A DNA stretch of 64,000 nt from Myxococcales bacterium (GTDB lineage Bacteria; Myxococcota; Myxococcia; Myxococcales; UBA5297): positions 48,027-112,026 of the forward strand of contig JAVBMV010000010.1 of NCBI GenBank assembly GCA_031552145.1, given 5' to 3'. The notes beneath the pieces were generated by a model. That model was not told the DNA's origin. It did not search any database and worked only from the letters and a program-made list of their open reading frames with translations. Below, piece after piece: positions 2,227-48,249 of the stretch (positions within the stretch are counted from its first letter, which is position 1; each line of letters opens with the position of its first letter). Made by a program: the position numbers and the translations under genes.

Positions 2227-4401
2227 CTAACAGCTGAGCGCCTCGAGCGCGGCGACCGAATCGGCGGCGATTTCCCGCAGGGCAGCCATCGCCGCCGCTT
2301 CGTCGCCTTGCCCCTCCTTCGCCGCGCGGCGCAGTGTGCCGACCGCCTCCTGGAGACGCAGCATTCCGAAGCTCGCGGCGGCGCCGTCGAGCCTGTGCGC
2401 CGCGCGTCGAAGGCGGGCCGTATCGGCCAACTCGAAGCTCTCTTCCAACTCGCGCAGCTGGACATCGATGGCGCCCTGGGCCGAGGCGTAGAGCGCCGCT
2501 CTTCGTTCGGCGACGAGACAACGCCGGTACTCATCGTGCAGCGCGGGATCGAGCAGGGGACGCTTCCCCAGCGGGCAAGGTACTTCCTCACGCTCGCCCT
2601 TCTCCGCCTCCCACGATGGCCAGGCCTCTCCCTCTTCGAAGAGCGCTCGAATCGCGCAGGCAAGATCGGCAGAGCGCACAGGCTTCGCCAGGAAGCCCTG
2701 CATCCCGACCTCACGACAGGCCAGCTCCTGCTCCTGAAGCACGTCTGCCGTCAGTGCGACGATGGGAACCTGCGCTGCCGCTCCCGACCCGGAGCGGATC
2801 TGGCTCGCCGCCTCGAGCCCACCGATGCCAGGCAGATAGAGATCCATCAGCACCAAGTCGAACTCACCGCGAAGCGCCAGCGCCACTGCCTCTTCACCGG
2901 TCGAAGCGAGCGTGACGTGATGCCCCAGGTGTTCGAGGAGCGCGCCCACGATCCATCTGCCCTGCTCCGAGTCGTCAACGAGCAACAGGCGGCGCCAAGG
3001 GCCGCTCTGCGCGACCAAGGGCGCATCCTCTGGGAGACCCGGCACCAACGCAACCTCGAAACAGAAAATGCTGCCGCGCCCCGGCTCGCTCTTCGCGGTG
3101 AGCGAGCCCCCCATCGCCTCCGCCACCTGGCGGCTGATGGCGAGCCCGAGCCCGACTCCTCCTCCGCTCCGCGGCGCGTTGCTCCCCTGGAAGAGCGGCT
3201 CGAAGACGCGGTTGAGTTCCTCTTGCGAGATACCGATGCCAGTGTCCTGAACCGATACTGAGAAGAGCAGCCGTTCGCCAGTGGGCGCCACCGCCGCCTC
3301 GAAGGCGACCTCTCCCTCCGCCGTGAACTTGATGGCGTTCTGAAGGAGGTTGGAGAGGATCTGCTTGATGCGCGCGCGGTCGGCGCGAACCCAGGTCGCC
3401 TCTAATGGTGTGGGCCCACGGAAGGTGAGCCCCTTTCGCGCGGCCGCCAACTCGAAGAAGCCATGCAGCTCTCCGAGCAACGCGGCCAAATCGAAATTCT
3501 GATCGACGCGCAGCGGGCGCTCGGCACCCGAGCGCGTGTATTCCAGGACATCATCCACCAGCGCGTGGAGCTGCCCGGCGCTCTCCTCAACCACCTGGAG
3601 GAGCGCGCGCGTCCTCTTCGGCAGCTCGGTGGCGAGCGCCAACTCGACGCCGCCGAGGATCCCGCCGAGCGGCGTCCGCATCTCGTGGCTCATCACCGCG
3701 AGGAAGCGCCCCTTCGCCTCGTTGGCCTTCGCCGCGGCCCGCTCCGCCAGAATGCGCTCCGTCACTTCGCGCTCCAGGCGTCGCTGCGAAGCGTAGTCTG
3801 AGTGGCTCAGCTTGTTGATGCCCACACTGGCCAGGTAGCCGAAGGTGTTGGTCACGCCACCCCAGACCAGCAGCAGCAGGATGTCCGAGCTGGAGACCCA
3901 CGGAGAGATGAGCTGGAAGAGCGCGAAGCAGCCGATGACGAAGGTGCAGAGCAGAGCGGTCAGGAGTGGCGTATTCGGAATGAGGAAGTAGCAGCCCACG
4001 ATGATGAGGGCGAAGGTCCCGACGTTGGCGCTGGCGACCGAAACCCCTGCCTGCTTGACGAGGGCATATTCGAAGAGCTCGGAGAAGAGCACCGTCAGTT
4101 CACCCACGGCGATGACCCAGGTGAGCCTCGGCGGGCGCGAAGGGCGCCGCGCGAGCAGGACGAAGAGCGCGAAGAGCACCATCGTCGTCGCACGGAAGGC
4201 CGCCATGGCCCAGAACCGTGGCGTGAGGCCAAAGGTGTCGTAGTCGATGAGCGGGGCGGTGGAGTAGGCCAGGATGCCGAAGGTCGCGGCGATCTTGAGC
4301 TGGCGCGAGGCCTGCGGCCAACGGAAGCGCGCGTACTCCTCCTCGCGGTGCTTCGCGGCGAATTGGCCCGTCCAGCGCGAGACCGCGAAGTCGCCGCTCA
4401 A
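2227..4401 (-). CDS. Membrane hybrid sensor histidine kinase (TM region, HisKA, HATPase, REC, Hpt)
   Basis: Several hydrophobic segments; SHEMRTPL H-box; NLLQNAIKF; DTGIG; GLGL; receiver LLVDD..MDL..KP; C-terminal AHRLDGAA Hpt-like motif. Confidence 0.92.
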   Translation of the reverse strand: MSGDFAVSRWTGQFAAKHREEEYARFRWPQASRQLKIAATFGILAYSTAPLIDYDTFGLTPRFWAMAAFRATTMVLFALFVLLARRPSRPPRLTWVIAVGELTVLFSELFEYALVKQAGVSVASANVGTFALIIVGCYFLIPNTPLLTALLCTFVIGCFALFQLISPWVSSSDILLLLVWGGVTNTFGYLASVGINKLSHSDYASQRRLEREVTERILAERAAAKANEAKGRFLAVMSHEMRTPLGGILGGVELALATELPKRTRALLQVVEESAGQLHALVDDVLEYTRSGAERPLRVDQNFDLAALLGELHGFFELAAARKGLTFRGPTPLEATWVRADRARIKQILSNLLQNAIKFTAEGEVAFEAAVAPTGERLLFSVSVQDTGIGISQEELNRVFEPLFQGSNAPRSGGGVGLGLAISRQVAEAMGGSLTAKSEPGRGSIFCFEVALVPGLPEDAPLVAQSGPWRRLLLVDDSEQGRWIVGALLEHLGHHVTLASTGEEAVALALRGEFDLVLMDLYLPGIGGLEAASQIRSGSGAAAQVPIVALTADVLQEQELACREVGMQGFLAKPVRSADLACAIRALFEEGEAWPSWEAEKGEREEVPCPLGKRPLLDPALHDEYRRCLVAERRAALYASAQGAIDVQLRELEESFELADTARLRRAAHRLDGAAASFGMLRLQEAVGTLRRAAKEGQGDEAAAMAALREIAADSVAALEALSC

Positions 4402-5203: not shown

Positions 5204-6529
5204 CTATCGGAGCCCAGCGCGCGCCGCCACTTTGGCGCGCTGCGCGCGCGCCTCGCTCACGATGGAGGGCAGCTCCTGCTCCAGAAGCCTCCCCTCTTCC
5301 ACCAGCACGCGACCATCGACCACCACGGCCCGCACGTCGCTTCCGCGCGCGCTGAAGACCAGGGAGGCGTAGGGATCGTCGTTGGGCGCGTGGTGTGCTC
5401 CGCTCCATTCGACGATAGCCAGATCGGCGCGCTTTCCGACCTCCAGGCTACCCACTTCTTCCGCGAGCCCCAGCGCGCGGGCGCCGCCGATGGTGGCCAT
5501 CGCGAAGACCTGCTCCGCAGGCATTGCCTTGGCACCCGCGCGCGGCAGGTGGATGAGCGCTGCGAGGCGCAGCTCGGTGAAGGCGTCGAGACCGTTGCTG
5601 CAGGCCGCCCCGTCGGCGCCAAGCGCCACGCAGAGTCCACGTTGGAGAAATTCGGGTACTGGCGCCAAACCCGAGGCGAGCTTCAGGTTCGAGGAGGGGC
5701 AGTGGATCACGCTGCTGCCACTCTGTGCGAGCAGCTCCACCTCCCCTGGCGTCATATGAATGCAATGCGCCAGCGAGAGGTCTGGCCCCAAGAATCCCAG
5801 GCGAGCGAAGTGCTCGATCGTATCGAGGCCGGTCCGCGCTCGGGCCGCCTCGCACTCGCGCCTGTTCTCGTTGGCGTGGGTGTGGAGCCTCGCTCCGCGC
5901 TCCTTCGCCAGCGCCGATGCGCCCGAGAGCAGCTCGTCGCTGCAAGAGAGCAGAAAGCGCGGCGCATGCGCATAGCGCAGCCGACCGCCCTCCGCGCCGT
6001 GGTAGCGCGCGGCGAGCGCCTCCGACTCGTCGAGGGCGTCTCGGGTGGAGTCGAGCAGCTTCGCCGGGATACCCTCCCCCTGATCGAGCAGCGCCTTGCC
6101 ACCGAAATAGCGCAGGCCGAAGCGCGCCGCCTCCTCGAAGAGCACCTCCGTGTGGCGCACGGTCCCCATATCCTGGATGGTGGTGGTACCGGAGAGGAGC
6201 AGCTCCGCCATTCCGAGCCTGGCGCTGGCGCGCAGCGAATGCGCGTCATGAGCAGCCTCCAGCGGCAAGATGCGTTCGCCGAGCCACTCGAGCAGCTCGC
6301 GCCCCTCGGCCATTCCCCGGAAGAGCGTCTGGCAGAGATGGACGTGCGCCTGAACGAGTCCGGGGATGACGAGCGCGCCGCCCGCGTCGAGGCGCCGCGC
6401 CACCTTGGCCGCGCCCAGGTCGCCGCCCAGCGCCGCGATGCACCCCCCTTCGATCAAGAGATCACCGCGCACGATCCGGCGCGCGCCATCCATGGTGACG
6501 AGCGTGCCATCGCGAATCAGCAGCGACAT
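5204..6529 (-). CDS. Amidohydrolase-family nucleoside deaminase (5'-deoxyadenosine/MTA-SAH deaminase-like)
   Basis: Start taken at MSLLIRDG; PGLVQAHVH metal motif, HANE, HCPSSNLKL, GADG, GSLEVGKRAD; directly follows cdd. Confidence 0.88.
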   Translation of the reverse strand: MSLLIRDGTLVTMDGARRIVRGDLLIEGGCIAALGGDLGAAKVARRLDAGGALVIPGLVQAHVHLCQTLFRGMAEGRELLEWLGERILPLEAAHDAHSLRASARLGMAELLLSGTTTIQDMGTVRHTEVLFEEAARFGLRYFGGKALLDQGEGIPAKLLDSTRDALDESEALAARYHGAEGGRLRYAHAPRFLLSCSDELLSGASALAKERGARLHTHANENRRECEAARARTGLDTIEHFARLGFLGPDLSLAHCIHMTPGEVELLAQSGSSVIHCPSSNLKLASGLAPVPEFLQRGLCVALGADGAACSNGLDAFTELRLAALIHLPRAGAKAMPAEQVFAMATIGGARALGLAEEVGSLEVGKRADLAIVEWSGAHHAPNDDPYASLVFSARGSDVRAVVVDGRVLVEEGRLLEQELPSIVSEARAQRAKVAARAGLR

Positions 6530-31109: not shown

Positions 31110-31400
31110 ATGAAGATTCGCCCCTTGCAGGACCGCATCATCGTCAAGCGCGTTCAGGAAGAGGAGAAGACCAAGGGTGGCATCATTATCCCCGACTCCG
31201 CCAAGGAGAAGCCACTCGAGGGCATGGTCATCGCCGTCGGCAACGGCAAGGTGCTCGAGGATGGCAAGGTCCGCCCGCTCGACATCAAGGCCAACGACCG
31301 GGTCCTCTTCACCAAGTACGCCGGCACCGAGGTGAAGATCGACGGCGAGGAGCACCTGATCCTGCGCGAGGACGACATCCTCGGCGTCATCGAGAAGTAA
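31110..31400 (+). CDS. groES: Co-chaperonin GroES
   Basis: [24 protein letters not shown]. Confidence 0.98.
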
Positions 31401-31447: not shown

Positions 31448-33082
<1,635 letters not shown>

Positions 33083-33114
33083 TCCCGTCCGCTCCCGATC
33101 CCGGGAACGACATC

Positions 33115-33150
33115 AGGCCCCGCTCTCCTCACGGAGGGCGGGGCCTTTTG
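33115..33150 (+). terminator. Rho-independent terminator of groESL
   Basis: AGGCCCCGCTCTCC-TCAC-GGAGGGCGGGGCCT followed by a T run. Confidence 0.88.
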
Positions 33151-33158
33151 CTTGCACC
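33134..33158 (+). repeat. 25-bp direct repeat, left copy
   Basis: GAGGGCGGGGCCTTTTGCTTGCACC, identical to 34879-34903. Confidence 0.95.
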
Positions 33159-33170
33159 TCGCAGCGCCCT

Positions 33171-34457
33171 TCAAGGATATGGGAGCGGCAGCCGAAAACC
33201 GGGGTAAGCGAAAGCGCCCGCGAGCTTCTTGCAGTCGGCCTCGCTCATACCCGACGCTCTGGCGACCCCGTACCATGTGACTTGTATCTGCTTCTCCATG
33301 GCATCGATCACCGCCCTCGCCTCCTCCTTCGCCAACAGGAAGCGGGGCGCCTCGCTCACTAAGTTTTCCGCGTTGGCGTAGCGGCCCGCGACACCGCACT
33401 CCATAGCGAGATCTCGCCGCTCGACACTGACGGGAGCGGAGGGATTGAGATCGTACGCGGGCGAGAGGCGCCACTCGCGCGCTTGGGCGATGACAGCGTG
33501 GTTTCGAGGATGATCGTCGCTGTTCGAGATCAACGCATTGAAACAGATCCTGCGGAAGAGCTCGACGGCGTCGCGCTTGGGCTCGGAGCTGAGGCGACGC
33601 AGCTCCTCCACGAGGAACGGGTAGGACCACCGCTCGCGCGACTGGGCGCTCTCATCCGCTCGCAAGAGCGTCAGCGCGCTCAACATGCGTGAGCGCGTGT
33701 ACCCTGACAAGACTCTCGCTCGATCGAATCGTTTCACCAGTAAAACGTCTCGACCGCCAACCGAAGTGACCCGGCTCTCCGCCGCGTTTAGGCCGCAGCT
33801 GCGCGCCAAGAGGAGCATCGCGTGCTCGGCGCGCGCATGATTCCAACGATCATCCGCACGATTGAACTTGGCCAACCAAAGGCCCTGCTCGTCCTCGACC
33901 ACCGCCTTCGGGCGCGCACCGCCCATGGAGGTTCCGACGAGCAACAACTCCTCGGCCTGATAGAGCTCGGCATGATCCTTCTGGTCGCCTGGCAGCGCCT
34001 CTTCGTCCAAGATGCAGTCCGCCAGCCTCTGCAGCCGAGCCAGATCGAGCGTCCGATTGAAGGCGCGCAACGGCGCGGGAGGCTCTGGTCCCAGGCCAAA
34101 CCCCAGCGCTCCGGCCCTGTCATCCGGCGAATGGAGCAGATAGTCGAGCTCCCGCATGCGGACGACGCCAGCGTGACGCTCGATGACACGTCGCCCCCAG
34201 TAGTCTGGCGCGGCGTCGCGCAGCGCACCGAAGAGCCCCGCCTTGCTGGCGCTCTCGCGCAGACCAGGCCCGAGGCTCAGCTCGCCCGGATCGATCTCCA
34301 CCGCATCGGATCTCGCTAAGTAGCTCCGTCCGTAGATGAAGCGCCCCAGCGGCTCTTCCTGGCGCTCCCGCACGACTTCGAAGCGCCCAGCCACGACGGG
34401 CTTCGTCTCTCCTGGAAGCGTGATGTAGACGAAGCATCCGTCCCTCTCAGAAGTCAT
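33171..34457 (-). CDS. hipA: HipA-family toxin kinase
   Basis: DAAPDYWGR N-domain, SMGGARPK, AKF, RFDR, NSDDHPRNH, LSPAYDL. Confidence 0.93.
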   Translation of the reverse strand: MTSERDGCFVYITLPGETKPVVAGRFEVVRERQEEPLGRFIYGRSYLARSDAVEIDPGELSLGPGLRESASKAGLFGALRDAAPDYWGRRVIERHAGVVRMRELDYLLHSPDDRAGALGFGLGPEPPAPLRAFNRTLDLARLQRLADCILDEEALPGDQKDHAELYQAEELLLVGTSMGGARPKAVVEDEQGLWLAKFNRADDRWNHARAEHAMLLLARSCGLNAAESRVTSVGGRDVLLVKRFDRARVLSGYTRSRMLSALTLLRADESAQSRERWSYPFLVEELRRLSSEPKRDAVELFRRICFNALISNSDDHPRNHAVIAQAREWRLSPAYDLNPSAPVSVERRDLAMECGVAGRYANAENLVSEAPRFLLAKEEARAVIDAMEKQIQVTWYGVARASGMSEADCKKLAGAFAYPGFRLPLPYP

Positions 34458-34794
34458 CGTCCATGACTCCTTTCCCGGCGCTTCGCGCGCGCAGCCGCCC
34501 CTCTCGCTTCGACAGGATTAGCCCTTCCCGGTCGAGGCTGGGCTCGGCAAGGCACGCCAGTTGCTCTGTCAATCCGAAGACCCAGAGGAGGCCTGCATAG
34601 ATGGCGATGCCCGTCGAAGGTTTCCCCCTCTCGGCATCCGCCACCACATGGCGCCCAACACCGAGCTTTGCCGCCACGGCCTCGATCGTCTGGTTACGCC
34701 GCAGCCGGGCAGTCCTCAGATTAGCTCCGAGCCGCTTGAGCGCCTCCTCGACGGGGTAGGGGGGCGCCAAGACGAGCTGATTTCGAGTGGACAT
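34447..34794 (-). CDS. XRE-family HTH antitoxin (HipB-like)
   Basis: LGANLRTARLRR..VAAKLGV..VADAERG; overlaps the hipA start by 11 bp. Confidence 0.88.
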   Translation of the reverse strand: MSTRNQLVLAPPYPVEEALKRLGANLRTARLRRNQTIEAVAAKLGVGRHVVADAERGKPSTGIAIYAGLLWVFGLTEQLACLAEPSLDREGLILSKREGRLRARSAGKGVMDDDF

Positions 34795-34800
34795 GTCGCT

Positions 34801-34867
34801 TCAAGACTCCATTATGCTCCATATCGTAGCCTTGAGGCACCATAATCCTTCGAGACCAGCACTTCAA
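34801..34867 (-). promoter_or_regulatory. TA promoter with downstream imperfect palindromic operator
   Basis: TTGAAG-N17-TATGGT (34867-34839); TCAAGACTCC...GTAGCCTTGA at 34801-34835. Confidence 0.6.
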
Positions 34868-34878
34868 GTTGGCCGGAA

Positions 34879-34903
34879 GAGGGCGGGGCCTTTTGCTTGC
34901 ACC
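34879..34903 (+). repeat. 25-bp direct repeat, right copy
   Basis: Identical to 33134-33158; lacks the 5' arm of the hairpin. Confidence 0.95.
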
Positions 34904-34950
34904 GATATAGAGTCGGCTCCACGAACCCGACGCGCGAAGGAGTCTCGACC

Positions 34951-36273
34951 ATGAAGCCAAACCGAATCGCCGCGCCCCTTCTCTGCCTTCTCCTCTCGCT
35001 CGGCTGTGTTTCTTCAAAAGCGCAAGGGCCCGCCGCGCCTCTCCCTTCCCCGAGCGAGCCCGCGGCGGACAGCGACTATCTCGACGCTCTCGCCGCCACG
35101 GTCGCGGCGCAGATATCGCCCTCTCCGAAGGTGCCAGAAGGCCTCTTCGACGCGAGCTTTCTGGCGGCTCTCCCTCTGCGCCAGCTAGAGGCGGTCTACG
35201 CGACGCTCCACGAAAAATGGGGCCTCTGCAGGGTAGGAGGCGTGAAGGAGCGCCCTTCGAAGGAGCAGGCGATCTATCTGCTCGACTGTGACAAGGGGTA
35301 CCGAGTCGAGCTCTCGCTCAGCGCGCCCGAGGAGACGAAGCGCATCGCGGGCCTCTGGTTCAAGAACGCGGTCAGCACCCAGGCAACATCCTTCGACGCG
35401 CTGCGCGCCGAGCTCGCGGCGTTACCGGGGAAGGTCTCGGCGCTCGCGGTTCCTCTCGCGGGCGGCGAACCGCTCCTCGCGCTCGAGGCAGAGAGCCCCA
35501 GGGCGCTCGGCTCCATCTTCAAGCTCTATGTCCTCGCGACATTGTTTGACTCCATAAAGAATGGCCAGCATCGTTGGGATGAAGTGGTCCTCCTGAGGCC
35601 GGAGTGGCGCTCACTGCCCTCTGGACAGCTTCAGGACTGGCCCGTGGGCACGCCCGTGACGCTCGCCACGCTCGCGGACCTCATGATCTCGCGCAGCGAC
35701 AACACCGCGACGGACGCGCTGATCGGGGTGCTCGGCCGCGAGGCGATCGAGGGGCTGGCCACGAAGCTCGGGAATCGGTCGCAGCGGGCGCCCTTCCTCA
35801 CGACGCGCGAGGCCTTCAACCTGAAGGACGCCTCGCGAAAGGAGCTGGCCAGCCGTTACGTCGCGGCCTCGGCGAAGGAGCGGCGCGCACTCCTGTCGCA
35901 GAACGCCGGCGCCTTCCGGACCCAAGATCTGGCGCTCCCTCCAGCCCCCTATCTCATCGATGAAGTGGAGTGGTTCGCCACGCCGCGCGAGCTCGCGGCG
36001 CTCTTCGCACACCTCAAAGAGGCGAGCCCCCTCGCCCTGGAGACGCTGGCAATTAATCCGGGCACCCGCCAGAAGGAACTCTTCCAATATGCAGGCTTCA
36101 AAGGAGGCTCGGAACCCGGTGTGCTCTCGCTCGCCTACCTCGTGCAAACGCGCAAAGGAGACTGGTACACGGTCTCGGTGCTCTGGAATGACAGCGAGCG
36201 GAGCGTCGATGAAGGAAAGCTCGTCGACATCGCGGAGCGGCTCTTGCGCCTCGTAGCAGAACAGTTGCGTTAG
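34951..36273 (+). CDS. Lipoprotein, serine beta-lactamase/PBP-like hydrolase (Cpe/LpqF-like architecture)
   Basis: Lipobox LSLGC; SIFK (SxxK), SDN, KGG; extra N-terminal domain. Confidence 0.82.
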   Translation: MKPNRIAAPLLCLLLSLGCVSSKAQGPAAPLPSPSEPAADSDYLDALAATVAAQISPSPKVPEGLFDASFLAALPLRQLEAVYATLHEKWGLCRVGGVKERPSKEQAIYLLDCDKGYRVELSLSAPEETKRIAGLWFKNAVSTQATSFDALRAELAALPGKVSALAVPLAGGEPLLALEAESPRALGSIFKLYVLATLFDSIKNGQHRWDEVVLLRPEWRSLPSGQLQDWPVGTPVTLATLADLMISRSDNTATDALIGVLGREAIEGLATKLGNRSQRAPFLTTREAFNLKDASRKELASRYVAASAKERRALLSQNAGAFRTQDLALPPAPYLIDEVEWFATPRELAALFAHLKEASPLALETLAINPGTRQKELFQYAGFKGGSEPGVLSLAYLVQTRKGDWYTVSVLWNDSERSVDEGKLVDIAERLLRLVAEQLR

Positions 36274-36290: not shown

Positions 36291-36971
36291 CTAGTCACCC
36301 AGCTCCTTGCGCGCGCGCTTCTTGTCGCCCTGGCGCCGCTTCGCCTCGACCCTATGGCGCCGCTGCGCCTTGCTCGGCGCTGTGGCCTTTCGCGCTCTCT
36401 TCACGACCAGCATCGCCTCGAGCTTCTCGCGCAATCTCTCGAGCGCGACCTGCCGGTTCTCATATTGCGAGCGGCGCTCTGTCGCCTTGATCGCGAGGCC
36501 TGTCGGCCTATGGGTGAGGCGCACGCCGCTCTCGGTCTTGTTCCGGTGCTGCCCACCGGGCCCGCTCGCGATGAGCGTCTCGACGTCACACTCGGCGAGG
36601 AGCTTGCGATCATCGAGCGAGGCAGCGCGCTCGGCGATGCGAATCGAGACGAGGCGCCGCACCAGCGCCTCGGAGAGAGGTTTCTCGGGCGCAAAGCGAA
36701 TGGTTCCCTTCGCCAACTCGAAGCCCTTCAGCTCCGACGCGAGCAACTCTATCGGCCGCGCACCTGGATAGAGGGCGCAGTGGCGGGCGCCGGCGCCGAA
36801 GGAGATGACCAGCCGCCCCTCGAGACGAAAACCGGGGACGCCGTAGCTCATGCACTCCTCGGCCGCCGGGAGCAGAGCGCGTATGTAGTGCCTCACTCGC
36901 TCCAGCGCCTCGCGCTTCTCCGCGTCGAGCGTGCCCAGAAATTCGTCGATGGTGTTGGGCTTACCTTGCAT
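36291..36971 (-). CDS. DUF1801 domain fused to a GGQ peptidyl-tRNA hydrolase (ArfB/RF-1-like) domain
   Basis: TIDEFL..EECMSYGVPGF..KGTIRF, then SGPGGQHRNKTES..ERRSQYENR and a basic tail; AGGAG RBS. Confidence 0.85.
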   Translation of the reverse strand: MQGKPNTIDEFLGTLDAEKREALERVRHYIRALLPAAEECMSYGVPGFRLEGRLVISFGAGARHCALYPGARPIELLASELKGFELAKGTIRFAPEKPLSEALVRRLVSIRIAERAASLDDRKLLAECDVETLIASGPGGQHRNKTESGVRLTHRPTGLAIKATERRSQYENRQVALERLREKLEAMLVVKRARKATAPSKAQRRHRVEAKRRQGDKKRARKELGD

Positions 36972-37028
36972 GACACTCCTGTTGAGGTGCAACGAGCAGC
37001 ACCAACGCGATGAGCAGATTCGTCGCGC

Positions 37029-38392
37029 TCACAGCCCCGCTTCGTAGCTGGCGAGGCTCGCCGGAACGAACGAGAGCTTCACCGTTCCCATCTGCAGCTC
37101 TTTCGACACCGTGCGCGTGTAGACCGTGGCCTCTGCAAGCCCCTGCGCCTCGCAGAAGTCGACGATGCGCGTCAGCCCCTCCTCGGGCCGTTTCTCGATG
37201 CGATCGGACCACTTGATCTCCGCCACCCGCGCGGGACTGCCGACGGCGTCGAGCGCGATGAGATCGATCTCTTCGCCCTCTCCCCATCGCCCGTAATGGA
37301 GCGCCGCGCGCGGCTCATGGAGCCATTGCGAGAAGAGCGCTGTCTCCACCATCGATCCGAACCGGTCATCCTCGGCGGCAAGCGGCGAGAAGAGCGCGCT
37401 GCGCATCGAAGGGTTGGTCAGATAGGTCTTGAAGGTCGTGGCTCGTTGGAATCGTTTCGCTGAACGATCGACGCGATGGACGATTCGGATCAGGAAAGCA
37501 GCCTCGAGGTATTCGAGGTAGCGCTTGAGCGTGTTCTTCGCGACCGTCGAGCGCTTCGAGAGCTCGTCCAGCGAAACCTCCCCCGCCGTATGTAGGCAAG
37601 GGTCGTGAAGAGCTGGTTGAGCTCTGGTACATCCTGGATCCCGTAGAGGCTGGGCAAGTCTCGCAGCAGTACCTTCTCCACGATGTCCGAGCGGATGAAG
37701 CGCTGGGGGTCGGCGCGAATCGCTGGCGAGAGCGCCACCTCTGGATAGCCACCCCAGTTGACATAATCAACGAACTCCCGATTCAACGCGACGATGTCAT
37801 GCTGAGGATCCTCGACCTTTTGCCCGATAAGCGTCAGGTACTCTCGAAAGATCAGGGGCGGCAGCAAGAAGTCCGTGAACCGGCCAGCGCCCGATTCTGA
37901 GCTGGCCCTCCTGAGCGCCGCTGCGGCAGAGACCGAGGCGACGAACCGGGCGCGCGGATAGGCGTCGACCAGCGATTTAAGGTGGCGCTCCCATCCACTC
38001 AGGTACTGGATCTCATCAAAAAAGACGTAGATCTCCTCCTTCGAGAGTTCGACATCCGTAGCCTCCGCGAAGAAGCGCAGATATTCATCGAGACGAAGGC
38101 CACTGAAGAGCGGGCTGTCCACAGAAGCGAAGAGGATCTGCCTAGCCGGAACCCCTTCGGCCAGCAGCCTCTGAATCGCGTGCTGGATGAGCACGGTCTT
38201 CCCGACGCGCCTGGGCCCCATCAGGACCAGCGCGCGGTGGACTTCTTTCATCCGGAGCAGTGCGAAGAAGGGCTCCAGATAGAGGCGGGGTGTGAGCGGG
38301 ACGACCTCTCCCGCTGGCGAGTGGGGGGGGAGCCACCAGGGGTTCGAGAGCCTCCGATGGCCAATGATCTCTTCTCTGCCAATCTCTCTCAT
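37029..38392 (-). pseudogene. AAA_14/DUF4143-type ATP-binding protein, frameshifted near 37590
   Basis: NPWW, GPRRVGKT, FDEIQ, GGYPE in one frame; LKRYLEYLE..YLTNP..EIDL..EIKW continue in another frame. Confidence 0.8.
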
Positions 38393-38488
38393 CGAAACCC
38401 CAAGGTCAGTCGATTGACCTTGACGTATCAACAGAACCAGCCAGCGTCAATCGATTGATCTTCTGCCGAGATTGTTATCCTTGGCGCC

Positions 38489-47694: not shown

Positions 47695-48249
47695 ATGGCC
47701 CGCACCCTGCTGATCGTAGATGACGAAGAGAACGTCCGGAATGCGTTGAAGCGCTCTCTCCGCAAGGAGGGCTATGAGTTTCACACCGCCTCCGGCCCTG
47801 AGGAGGCCCTGGAGATCCTCAAGCGCGTCCCCGTCGACGTGGTCATCTCCGACCACATGATGCCGAAGATCACCGGGATCGAGTTTCTCTCTATGGTGCG
47901 CGACCGGTACCCCGACGTGGGGCGCATCATGCTGACGGGCGAAGCGGATATGAACACCGCCATCCGCGCGATCAACGACGGCCAGATCTACCGCTTCCTG
48001 CGCAAGCCCTGGGACGACACCGAGATCAAGGTGATCCTCGCCTTCGCCTTCGAGAAGGTGGAGGAAGAGCGCGAAACACGGCGGCTCCTCGCCAACGCGC
48101 GGAAGGCAGCCGTGGAGCAGGCCTCGGGCACACCCGCGGCGCCTGCACGCTCGGCCGAGATGACCGAACTCGAGCAGGCCCACCCCGGCATCTCGTCGGT
48201 GAAGCGCGACGAGAGCGGCGCGGTCATCCTCGACGAGGACGACACCTAG
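47695..48249 (+). CDS. Response regulator, receiver plus short acidic tail
   Basis: LIVDDE, ISDHMMP, MLTG, AINDG.IYRF..KPW. Confidence 0.9.
   Translation: MARTLLIVDDEENVRNALKRSLRKEGYEFHTASGPEEALEILKRVPVDVVISDHMMPKITGIEFLSMVRDRYPDVGRIMLTGEADMNTAIRAINDGQIYRFLRKPWDDTEIKVILAFAFEKVEEERETRRLLANARKAAVEQASGTPAAPARSAEMTELEQAHPGISSVKRDESGAVILDEDDT

Follow-up and report, generated by a model that had tools for sequence, protein, structure and literature searches.

A minimal integrase-free hipBA cassette bracketed by a putative insertion scar at the groESL terminator of a Myxococcales bacterium

Results

The direct repeat and the groESL terminator

We analysed a stretch of 64,000 nucleotides from a Myxococcales bacterium (GenBank assembly GCA_031552145.1, contig JAVBMV010000010.1, forward-strand positions 48,027–112,026; hereafter the window), in which a two-gene module of the hipBA toxin–antitoxin type lies just downstream of groESL. 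Our data support the reading that this islet is a minimal hipBA cassette without an integrase, enclosed by an insertion scar at the groESL terminator. The scar is formed by the 25-mer GAGGGCGGGGCCTTTTGCTTGCACC, of which two forward-strand copies, with 0 mismatches between them, stand at a start-to-start distance of 1745 bp (Table 1). The left copy consists of the 3′ arm (from its second base) and the T tract of the groESL hairpin, followed by 8 bases, and the right copy has no 5′ arm to pair with.

The terminator hairpin (33115–33146) begins 33 nt past the groEL stop codon. It folded with −38.2 kcal/mol (z = −4.18), a value reached by 0 of 200 shuffles, whereas no hairpin beyond chance was found around the right copy (z = −0.41; 61 of 200 shuffles folded as well). 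The edges of the repeat are sharp, with outside identities of 9/40 and 8/40 in the adjoining 40 bases. Identity of the copies sets only a loose bound on age: with neutral drift in the right copy, 0 changes over 25 bp would be likely up to ~0.1 substitution per site.

With up to 3 mismatches allowed, no third copy of the 25-mer was found in the window, and 0 of 100 shuffles matched. At the same tolerance, the whole genome (3,288,521 bases; 18 contigs, 3.29 Mb, 98.7% complete by a tool estimate) gave 2 forward and 0 reverse matches. A Logan contig of the sequencing run X1 (4,970 nt) covers positions 32913–35700 with 0 differing letters and 0 gaps. Because this contig matches across both junctions, the structure is not an artefact of a single assembler. 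X1 is the probable source sample, so the contig represents a second assembler, yet no independent biological support. Among the sequencing runs, the stretch was present in X1 only, and two runs of the same study shared next to none of its words. The joints listed for X1 contigs lay inside groEL, had short sides and probably came from other organisms.

These results agree with much of an original prediction, which had been made from the letters of the window alone. The exactness of the repeat and its spacing were confirmed, as was the assignment of the left copy, and not the right one, to a terminator. It also holds that the terminator is completed by the left copy and would stay whole if the two repeats recombined. 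Two explanations that the prediction had named as damaging to it did not apply, since the 25-mer occurs in two copies only and not as a multi-copy sequence of the repetitive extragenic palindromic (REP) type, and the second assembly spans both junctions without differences.

Content of the islet

Judged by its domains and gene order, the inserted segment is a minimal hipBA-type operon, predicted to encode an XRE/HipB-like antitoxin-repressor and a HipA-family kinase toxin. The HipA_C domain (PF07804) was matched over residues 176–395 with 163.6 bits against a cut-off of 30.5 bits; Couple_hipA (PF13657) reached 21.9 bits, slightly under its cut-off of 22.5 bits. The motifs GGARPK, DDHPRN and SPAYDL are kept, and the latter two align with NEDMHLKN and SPAYDL of HipT. 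We take these motifs to be the Gly-rich loop, the catalytic loop (D-x-H-x-x-N) and the site of the Mg-binding D in xYDL, respectively. Matches in the PDB were to HipT/HipA from 3e-8, with HipA chains at only ~1e-5 over residues 210–355, and the NCBIfam HipA/YjjJ model gave 54 bits against a cut-off of 401 bits. The XRE gene stop overlaps the hipA start by 11 nt. Its product matched PDB chain 9u9g, named “XRE family transcriptional regulator, HipB”, with 1e-5, and in 156 of 160 related loci hipA has an XRE homologue immediately upstream. HipA is presumably toxic, and the host presumably addicted to the pair.

Little else lies between the repeats. The left repeat is separated from the hipA stop codon by 12 bp and the XRE start from the right repeat by 84 bp, both non-coding, and we saw neither gene fragments nor remnants of pseudogenes in the segment. 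Neither a tyrosine (PF00589) nor a serine (PF00239) recombinase was matched anywhere on the contig (C16, 127.8 kb), islet included, and the predicted minimal module without a recombinase was thus borne out. The original prediction had pointed to tyrosine recombinases as something to search for in the genome; here the outcome was divided, with none on the contig and with XerC-/XerD-type and weak matches elsewhere, which we consider below. A 1,850-bp islet query (33101–34950) found no further copy in the genome, where the hipA paralogue closest in sequence shares 33% identity.

The cassette itself lacks a terminator, and hipBA transcription meets the groESL hairpin from the other side; read on the opposite strand, the hairpin still folds (z = −3.0), with no U tract after it. 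The GC content at third codon positions (GC3) is 0.774 for hipA and 0.750 for the XRE gene, compared to a genome-wide median of 0.835, with the 5th percentile at 0.733. With these low-normal values and a flat GC profile, composition neither helps nor hurts the view that the module is foreign. The possible hipBA promoter listed in Table 1 falls below the threshold of our promoter scan (9/12) and was therefore not listed by it.

We also observed a heptamer, CTTCAAG, at 33169–33175 and 34862–34868, that is, 10 nt inside each repeat copy (repeat-N10-CTTCAAG...CTTCAAG-N10-repeat). The hipA stop codon falls in the left heptamer, and the putative −35 box in the right one; the arrangement may be due to chance.

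Table 1. Features of the groESL–hipBA region, in coordinates of the window
Feature	Position	Strand	Remarks
groES (Cpn10)	31110–31400	+	PF00166, 1.2e-37
groEL	31448–33082	+	PF00118, 6.2e-78; sole tblastn match in the genome with this query
groESL intrinsic terminator	33115–33150	+	14-pair stem, 4-nt loop, T tract; terminator scan and fold
Left copy of 25-bp direct repeat	33134–33158	+	3′ arm from second base, T tract, 8 further bases
Inserted segment, 1,720 bp	33159–34878		12 bp spacer, hipA, XRE gene, 84 bp upstream region
hipA-family Ser/Thr kinase toxin gene (predicted), 428 aa, apparently intact	33171–34457	-	HipA_C, 6.8e-48
XRE/HipB-like antitoxin gene (predicted), 115 aa	34447–34794	-	HTH_31, 1.7e-6
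Possible hipBA promoter, TTGAAG-17-TATGGT	34839–34867	-	By eye, weak; 8/12 consensus positions
Right copy of 25-bp direct repeat	34879–34903	+	Without 5′ arm
Downstream gene, lipoprotein-like, distant class A beta-lactamase/transpeptidase fold	34951–36273	+	PF13354, 1.2e-20

Relatives and distribution

The comparison set comprised 40 family- and order-level genomes, none of the same genus, searched with 4 kb of DNA. Only the groEL portion of this query matched, with up to 87% identity. At 11 of 11 family- and order-level groEL loci, groEL has a terminator of its own, after which an ATG and an open frame come within tens of nt, and hipA occurred within 1.5 kb of groEL in 0 of the 11. Four further groEL loci, from small-genome relatives, likewise had neither hipA nor the downstream gene of the window, which was absent from all 15 relatives’ groEL loci inspected. 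Because the downstream gene is not shared, these 15 loci are unusable as empty sites and inform on the general layout only. Without the islet, the window would have the relatives’ layout, with 123 nt from the groEL stop codon to the next ATG. The 21-mer core of the repeat gave 0 matches in genome_contigs and 0 in metagenome_contigs.

The best relatives of HipA in two large collections are 60–69% identical and come mostly from Alpha-, Beta- and Gammaproteobacteria. Members of this HipA subfamily were present in 2 of the 12 other genomes of the family, with 62–64% identity. On the strength of these comparisons, the hipBA module is foreign-looking, probably horizontally acquired, and patchy in the family, which supports the cassette reading of the original prediction. 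An insertion at this site, rather than an ancestral state, is very likely; we infer the direction of the event, because no empty site was seen.

Homologous hipBA loci

The 500-bp flanks of 115 homologous loci were screened for exact repeats of at least 15 bp. Such a repeat flanked five of the 115 loci, versus 0 of 575 mismatched-pair controls. In one of the five (L092), the flanks are multi-copy 51-nt REP-like units, and in another (L143) they are paralogous genes, which left L057 (52 bp), L063 and L111 (16 bp each) as candidates. No terminator arm with a T tract was found among the four repeat-flanked loci that were folded (all but L092). The original prediction had raised the possibility that close hipA homologues are also flanked by terminator-arm repeats; with repeats at 5/115 loci and 0/4 folding like a terminator arm, terminator targeting did not emerge as a family trait.

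One of these loci, L063 from Acidiphilium sp. PA, carries an XRE–hipA pair bounded by a 16-bp direct repeat. A 1,957-bp unit (L063:3434–5390) recurs with 99.8% identity in another genome of the Acidiphilium group (G050:C1:62740–64696; L192:1501–3457), and the identity block extends from 3 nt before the left 16-mer to 2 nt past the right one. The right flanks of the two copies are unrelated, and ~45 nt of the left flanks are ~60% alike. Three of the four mismatches between the units lie in the terminal 16-mers, in the left part of the left end and in the right part of the right end; this is the pattern expected of a crossover between similar, non-identical sites. In G050, a gene for a 210-aa tyrosine recombinase starts 47 bp beyond the XRE–hipA unit, and the L063 unit is flanked by IS66 and other insertion sequence (IS)-like sequences. 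Moreover, a 93% copy in G050, interrupted by a repeated element, seems to occupy the position orthologous to L063. The 16-mer is not multi-copy in G041 or G050, where a tolerance of at most 1 mismatch gave one extra match per genome. No empty site for the G050:C1 copy was found, and the flanks of the one similar 16-mer, on contig C45 of G041, are unrelated.

Two of the other repeat-flanked loci have features of their own. L092, from a gammaproteobacterial metagenome-assembled genome (MAG), has its hipBA homologue between arrays of the 51-nt REP-like units at 3305–3423 and 5305–5573, in both orientations. In a Phenylobacterium MAG (L057:338–2441), a 52-bp direct repeat, 51/52 identical, stands on either side of the hipBA homologue. 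The ends are more elaborate here: inside the repeat, the upstream side has two tandem 33-nt units, and the hipA stop codon is followed at once by a 25-nt inverted copy (96%). No usable empty site for L057 was found in relatives of its genome.

The neighbours of related hipBA genes were surveyed at 62 loci, at which 124 of 136 selected nearest large flanking open reading frames (ORFs) were scanned. About 11 of the 124 were related to mobility (3 tyrosine integrases, 2 IS240 transposases, 2 OrfB_IS605, 2 serine recombinases and 2 conjugative coupling proteins), and the other neighbours were mostly ordinary genes. The gene of release factor RF3 (prfC) was the neighbour in 4 of the 124, which may reflect one inherited site in related genomes.

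Other repeat-flanked cassettes in the same genome

Screening the whole genome for direct repeats that are exact and isolated gave a list of 43. Among them are those of two small recombinase-free cassettes on contig C13, each made of one AAA_14-DUF4143 gene (PADLOC PDC-S01). The first (C13:266527–268014; L182:1028–2515) is bounded by an exact 48-bp direct repeat, which duplicates DNA just upstream of the start codon of a Glu/Gln-tRNA synthetase. The second (C13:237430–238956; L190:1031–2557; PDC-S01 match of 3e-160) has an exact 31-bp repeat and sits between a peptidase gene and its neighbour. The repeats of 25, 31 and 48 bp are mutually unrelated, and the duplications are intergenic and spare both neighbours.

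The same genome also provides a conventional island of 9.2 kb in tRNA-Thr(CGT) (C4:22848–32081; L184). Its 42-bp direct repeat opens at tRNA position 32, where the anticodon loop begins, and closes at the 3′ end of the tRNA, and a weak tyrosine-recombinase match (22.5 bits) lies near the far end of the island.

A further locus (C13:7821–9990; L181:1022–3191) has a 48-bp exact core within a diverged ~170-bp repeat around an AAA_21/AAA_15 ATPase gene and a gene without a known family. It resembles a duplicated leader or promoter region more than a sharp target duplication.

Neighbouring genes

Upstream of groES lie ABC-transporter auxiliary and DUF4340 genes. On the other side of the islet, the ATG of the downstream gene stands 47 nt beyond the right repeat, and the N-terminus of its product is lipoprotein-like; against the NCBIfam bla_class_A model, the protein scored only 31 bits (cut-off 200 bits). 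Beyond it follow an RF-1-domain gene and then a split AAA_14/DUF234 gene, both on the reverse strand. The former (36291–36992) encodes DUF1801 fused to an RF-1 (peptidyl-tRNA hydrolase, ArfB-like) domain. The latter (37029–38431) comprises an AAA_14 ATPase ORF of 313 aa, similar to the N-terminal part of PDC-S01, and then a separate DUF234 ORF of 125 aa. The two ORFs may represent one gene that was split or has decayed, belonging to the broad class of ATPases also found in the two scarred cassettes on C13.

Discussion

Mechanism of insertion

Our preferred reading, to which we assign a probability of roughly 45%, is that the cassette entered by a Campbell-type crossover between a 25-mer on a small circle and the identical chromosomal 25-mer. 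The hipBA cassette, as a small circle carrying the 25-mer, would have met the same sequence in the spacer between groESL and the downstream gene, and a single reciprocal crossover would have integrated the circle and left one 25-mer on each side. The catalyst would have been either a recombinase supplied in trans and since lost, or host recombination acting on the short identity; we infer both the circular intermediate and the enzyme. Because the block of identity begins at the second base of the 3′ arm, the left junction would rebuild the groESL terminator, and the right copy would remain as a functionless relic. The 47-nt leader of the downstream gene would be untouched and neither neighbour damaged. 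The toxin–antitoxin pair would then penalise loss of the cassette, yet the repeats could still recombine and so excise exactly 1,745 bp.

The crossover is favoured by the length of the repeat, as 25 bp is within the range of the identity blocks of attachment (att) sites. The identity block also starts beside the loop of a dyad-symmetric hairpin, like the 42-bp repeat of the tRNA-Thr island, and the homologous Acidiphilium cassette behaves as a repeat-bounded unit across genomes. Further points in its favour are the exact, unique and sharply delimited repeat around a minimal cargo, the layout behind groEL in the relatives, and the foreign character of the module.

Several observations weigh against the crossover. 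On inspection, the 25-mer has no internal dyad symmetry of the sort that marks recombinase binding sites. The only strong tyrosine recombinases of the genome are of the XerD and XerC types and are encoded on other contigs, as are two weak tyrosine-recombinase matches, one of them Xer-like at C14:251689, and one large serine recombinase, on C7. Among the X1 contigs no joint spans the islet, although contigs cannot reveal rare excision. Neither a circle junction nor a donor copy of the cassette was found in the X1 contigs, genome_contigs or metagenome_contigs, nor an empty site among the 15 family- and order-level groEL loci. Flanking repeats of at least 15 bp were absent from 110 of the 115 homologous loci. 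The Acidiphilium proteins are only ~65% identical to those of the window, and the identical Acidiphilium block could, going by its left margin, be a conversion tract, because ~45 nt to the left of it are ~60% similar between the genomes. We must also note that the 31- and 48-bp cassettes on C13 fit a general, sequence-independent process at least as well.

According to Furuta, Abe and Kobayashi (2010, PMC2853133), a repeat of target sequence around a foreign segment may arise by site-specific recombination, by insertion that duplicates a long stretch of the target, or by chance. The second of these routes is a real possibility for the islet, which we nevertheless hold at less than even odds. 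Fill-in synthesis would have copied 25 nt of the target, with no need for a dedicated site-specific recombinase or for prior identity with the cassette, and identical copies are what fill-in predicts. The cargo is of the addiction type with no mobility gene inside, and the genome has two more recombinase-free cassettes, on C13, with unrelated exact duplications of 31 and 48 bp. Since the three repeats are unrelated, one general process is more economical than three missing integrases. Variability in the length and sequence of the repeat is the hallmark of the class in the same paper (PMC2853133), and hairpin-forming DNA would be a plausible fragile site. However, 25 bp is below the cut-off of >30 bp by which Furuta et al. 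separated the class from site-specific recombination, and the discussion of their paper presents the mechanism as hypothetical and never demonstrated experimentally (PMC2853133). Moreover, no empty site with a single-copy 25-mer was found among the relatives, and the end repeats of the Acidiphilium homologue at its two separate sites are almost alike, an outcome that a random staggered cut would not produce.

The islet might instead be the remnant of a larger, integrase-bearing island that entered at the terminator and lost all but the toxin–antitoxin pair by deletion. Integrase islands are the commonest source of flanking repeats, as the 9.2-kb tRNA-Thr island of this very genome illustrates, the ~11 mobility-related ORFs among the 124 that flank homologous loci point the same way, and selection for retention of toxin–antitoxin pairs is established. 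We consider this origin quite improbable, as deletions would have had to trim the island to within 12 bp and 84 bp of the genes while sparing both repeats, which are still 25/25 identical, and would have left no gene fragments between them. The original prediction had offered mobilisation in trans and descent from a larger element as two options; with only 12 bp and 84 bp of non-coding DNA at the ends, the latter is the less likely of the two. That there is no insertion scar at all, the second 25-mer being due to chance, to a local duplication unrelated to hipBA or to misassembly, is hardly credible. Such a reading gains from the fact that the empty site was not seen and the direction of the event had to be deduced. 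It has to contend with zero matches expected by chance and a 25-mer found only twice in 3.29 Mb, with repeats that bracket a foreign two-gene module exactly, and with the second-assembler contig that spans both junctions.

Known classes of mobile elements were also compared with the islet and rejected. An insertion sequence or transposon would call for a transposase, terminal inverted repeats and a target duplication that is typically <10 bp; no transposase domain was found in hipA or the XRE gene, no terminal inverted repeat pairs the inner ends (10/18 positions by eye), and 25 bp is far over the usual length. An integron gene cassette was not supported either, with no attC-type palindrome in the 12 nt past the hipA stop codon or in the 84-nt region with the right repeat, whose fold was no better than that of shuffles (z = 0.58). 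A dif-like site, or an integrative mobile element exploiting Xer (IMEX), was rejected by eye against the dif consensus.

Comparison with known systems

Insertion that duplicates a long stretch of the target was reportedly proposed by Nobusato et al. in 2000 for restriction-modification genes, and again by Furuta et al. in 2010. For restriction-modification complexes, the paper by Furuta et al. sets an insert of <20 kb, which has no mobility genes and holds the complete gene unit, and a duplication of >30 bp as the criteria of this class (PMC2853133). The islet resembles such insertions in being an addiction-type unit without a mobility gene, much smaller than 20 kb (<<20 kb), with intact neighbours and a unique local duplication. 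It differs from them in that the cargo is a toxin–antitoxin pair, the repeat is shorter than the class demands, and the repeat overlaps a terminator arm. The DUF4143/PDC-S01 cassettes on C13 are also comparable, being of the same size class, recombinase-free and bounded by exact intergenic duplications that spare the neighbours; they differ in cargo family and in their longer repeats.

As in tRNA islands, the repeat of the islet measures tens of bp, starts by a hairpin loop and passes the 3′ end, and the target is rebuilt at one junction. Unlike in tRNA islands, the target is a terminator, there is no integrase in or near the element, and its size is 1.7 kb instead of many kb.

Phage Bxb1 reportedly inserts within the coding sequence of groEL1, without a long direct repeat, and the integrated element is the whole phage. 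It shares with the islet the integration of a mobile element at a groEL locus. The differences are the serine integrase and the site, which for Bxb1 is the mycobacterial groEL1 gene itself and not a terminator (PMC2884959, citing Kim et al. 2003). The original prediction had treated the 3′ end of groEL as a known integration site; Bxb1, as described in that paper (PMC2884959), was the sole precedent confirmed, and the claim found no support in that form.

With hipBA of Escherichia coli, the pair of the window has in common an overlapping antitoxin gene of the helix-turn-helix type located upstream, and a HipA_C kinase of ~430 aa in which the catalytic-loop and Mg-binding motifs are kept. By its PDB and NCBIfam scores, it belongs to a distant subfamily and is a predicted toxin–antitoxin pair.

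Biological meaning

Chromosomal toxin–antitoxin systems are usually held to spread as passengers of plasmids, phages and islands. To our knowledge, few clean cases are on record of a module that stands by itself within an insertion scar. In our literature search, long flanking duplications were described for restriction-modification systems and none for hipBA.

The insertion should be close to neutral for the neighbours, because the duplicated block holds the 3′ arm and the T tract and the downstream gene keeps its 47-nt leader. The locus thus shows how insertion into a terminator can be neutral by means of a duplication that rebuilds the terminator. If HipA is toxic and the XRE protein labile, in the manner of those hipBA systems that have been studied, there would be a penalty on losing the cassette. 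The exact repeat, the two sister cassettes on C13 and the repeat-to-repeat unit of Acidiphilium offer substrates for the questions of circle excision and of the enzyme.

A broader and rather speculative proposal, which we regard as unlikely on present data, is that addiction or defence cassettes of one or two genes form a class of recombinase-free mobile units, represented in this genome by hipBA and the two DUF4143 ATPase genes. These would move as circles of ~1.5–2 kb and enter at short identities or at structure-prone sites, such as terminator hairpins, by host functions only, leaving long and variable duplications and intact neighbours. If such a class were real, terminators would be safe harbours that these cassettes exploit.

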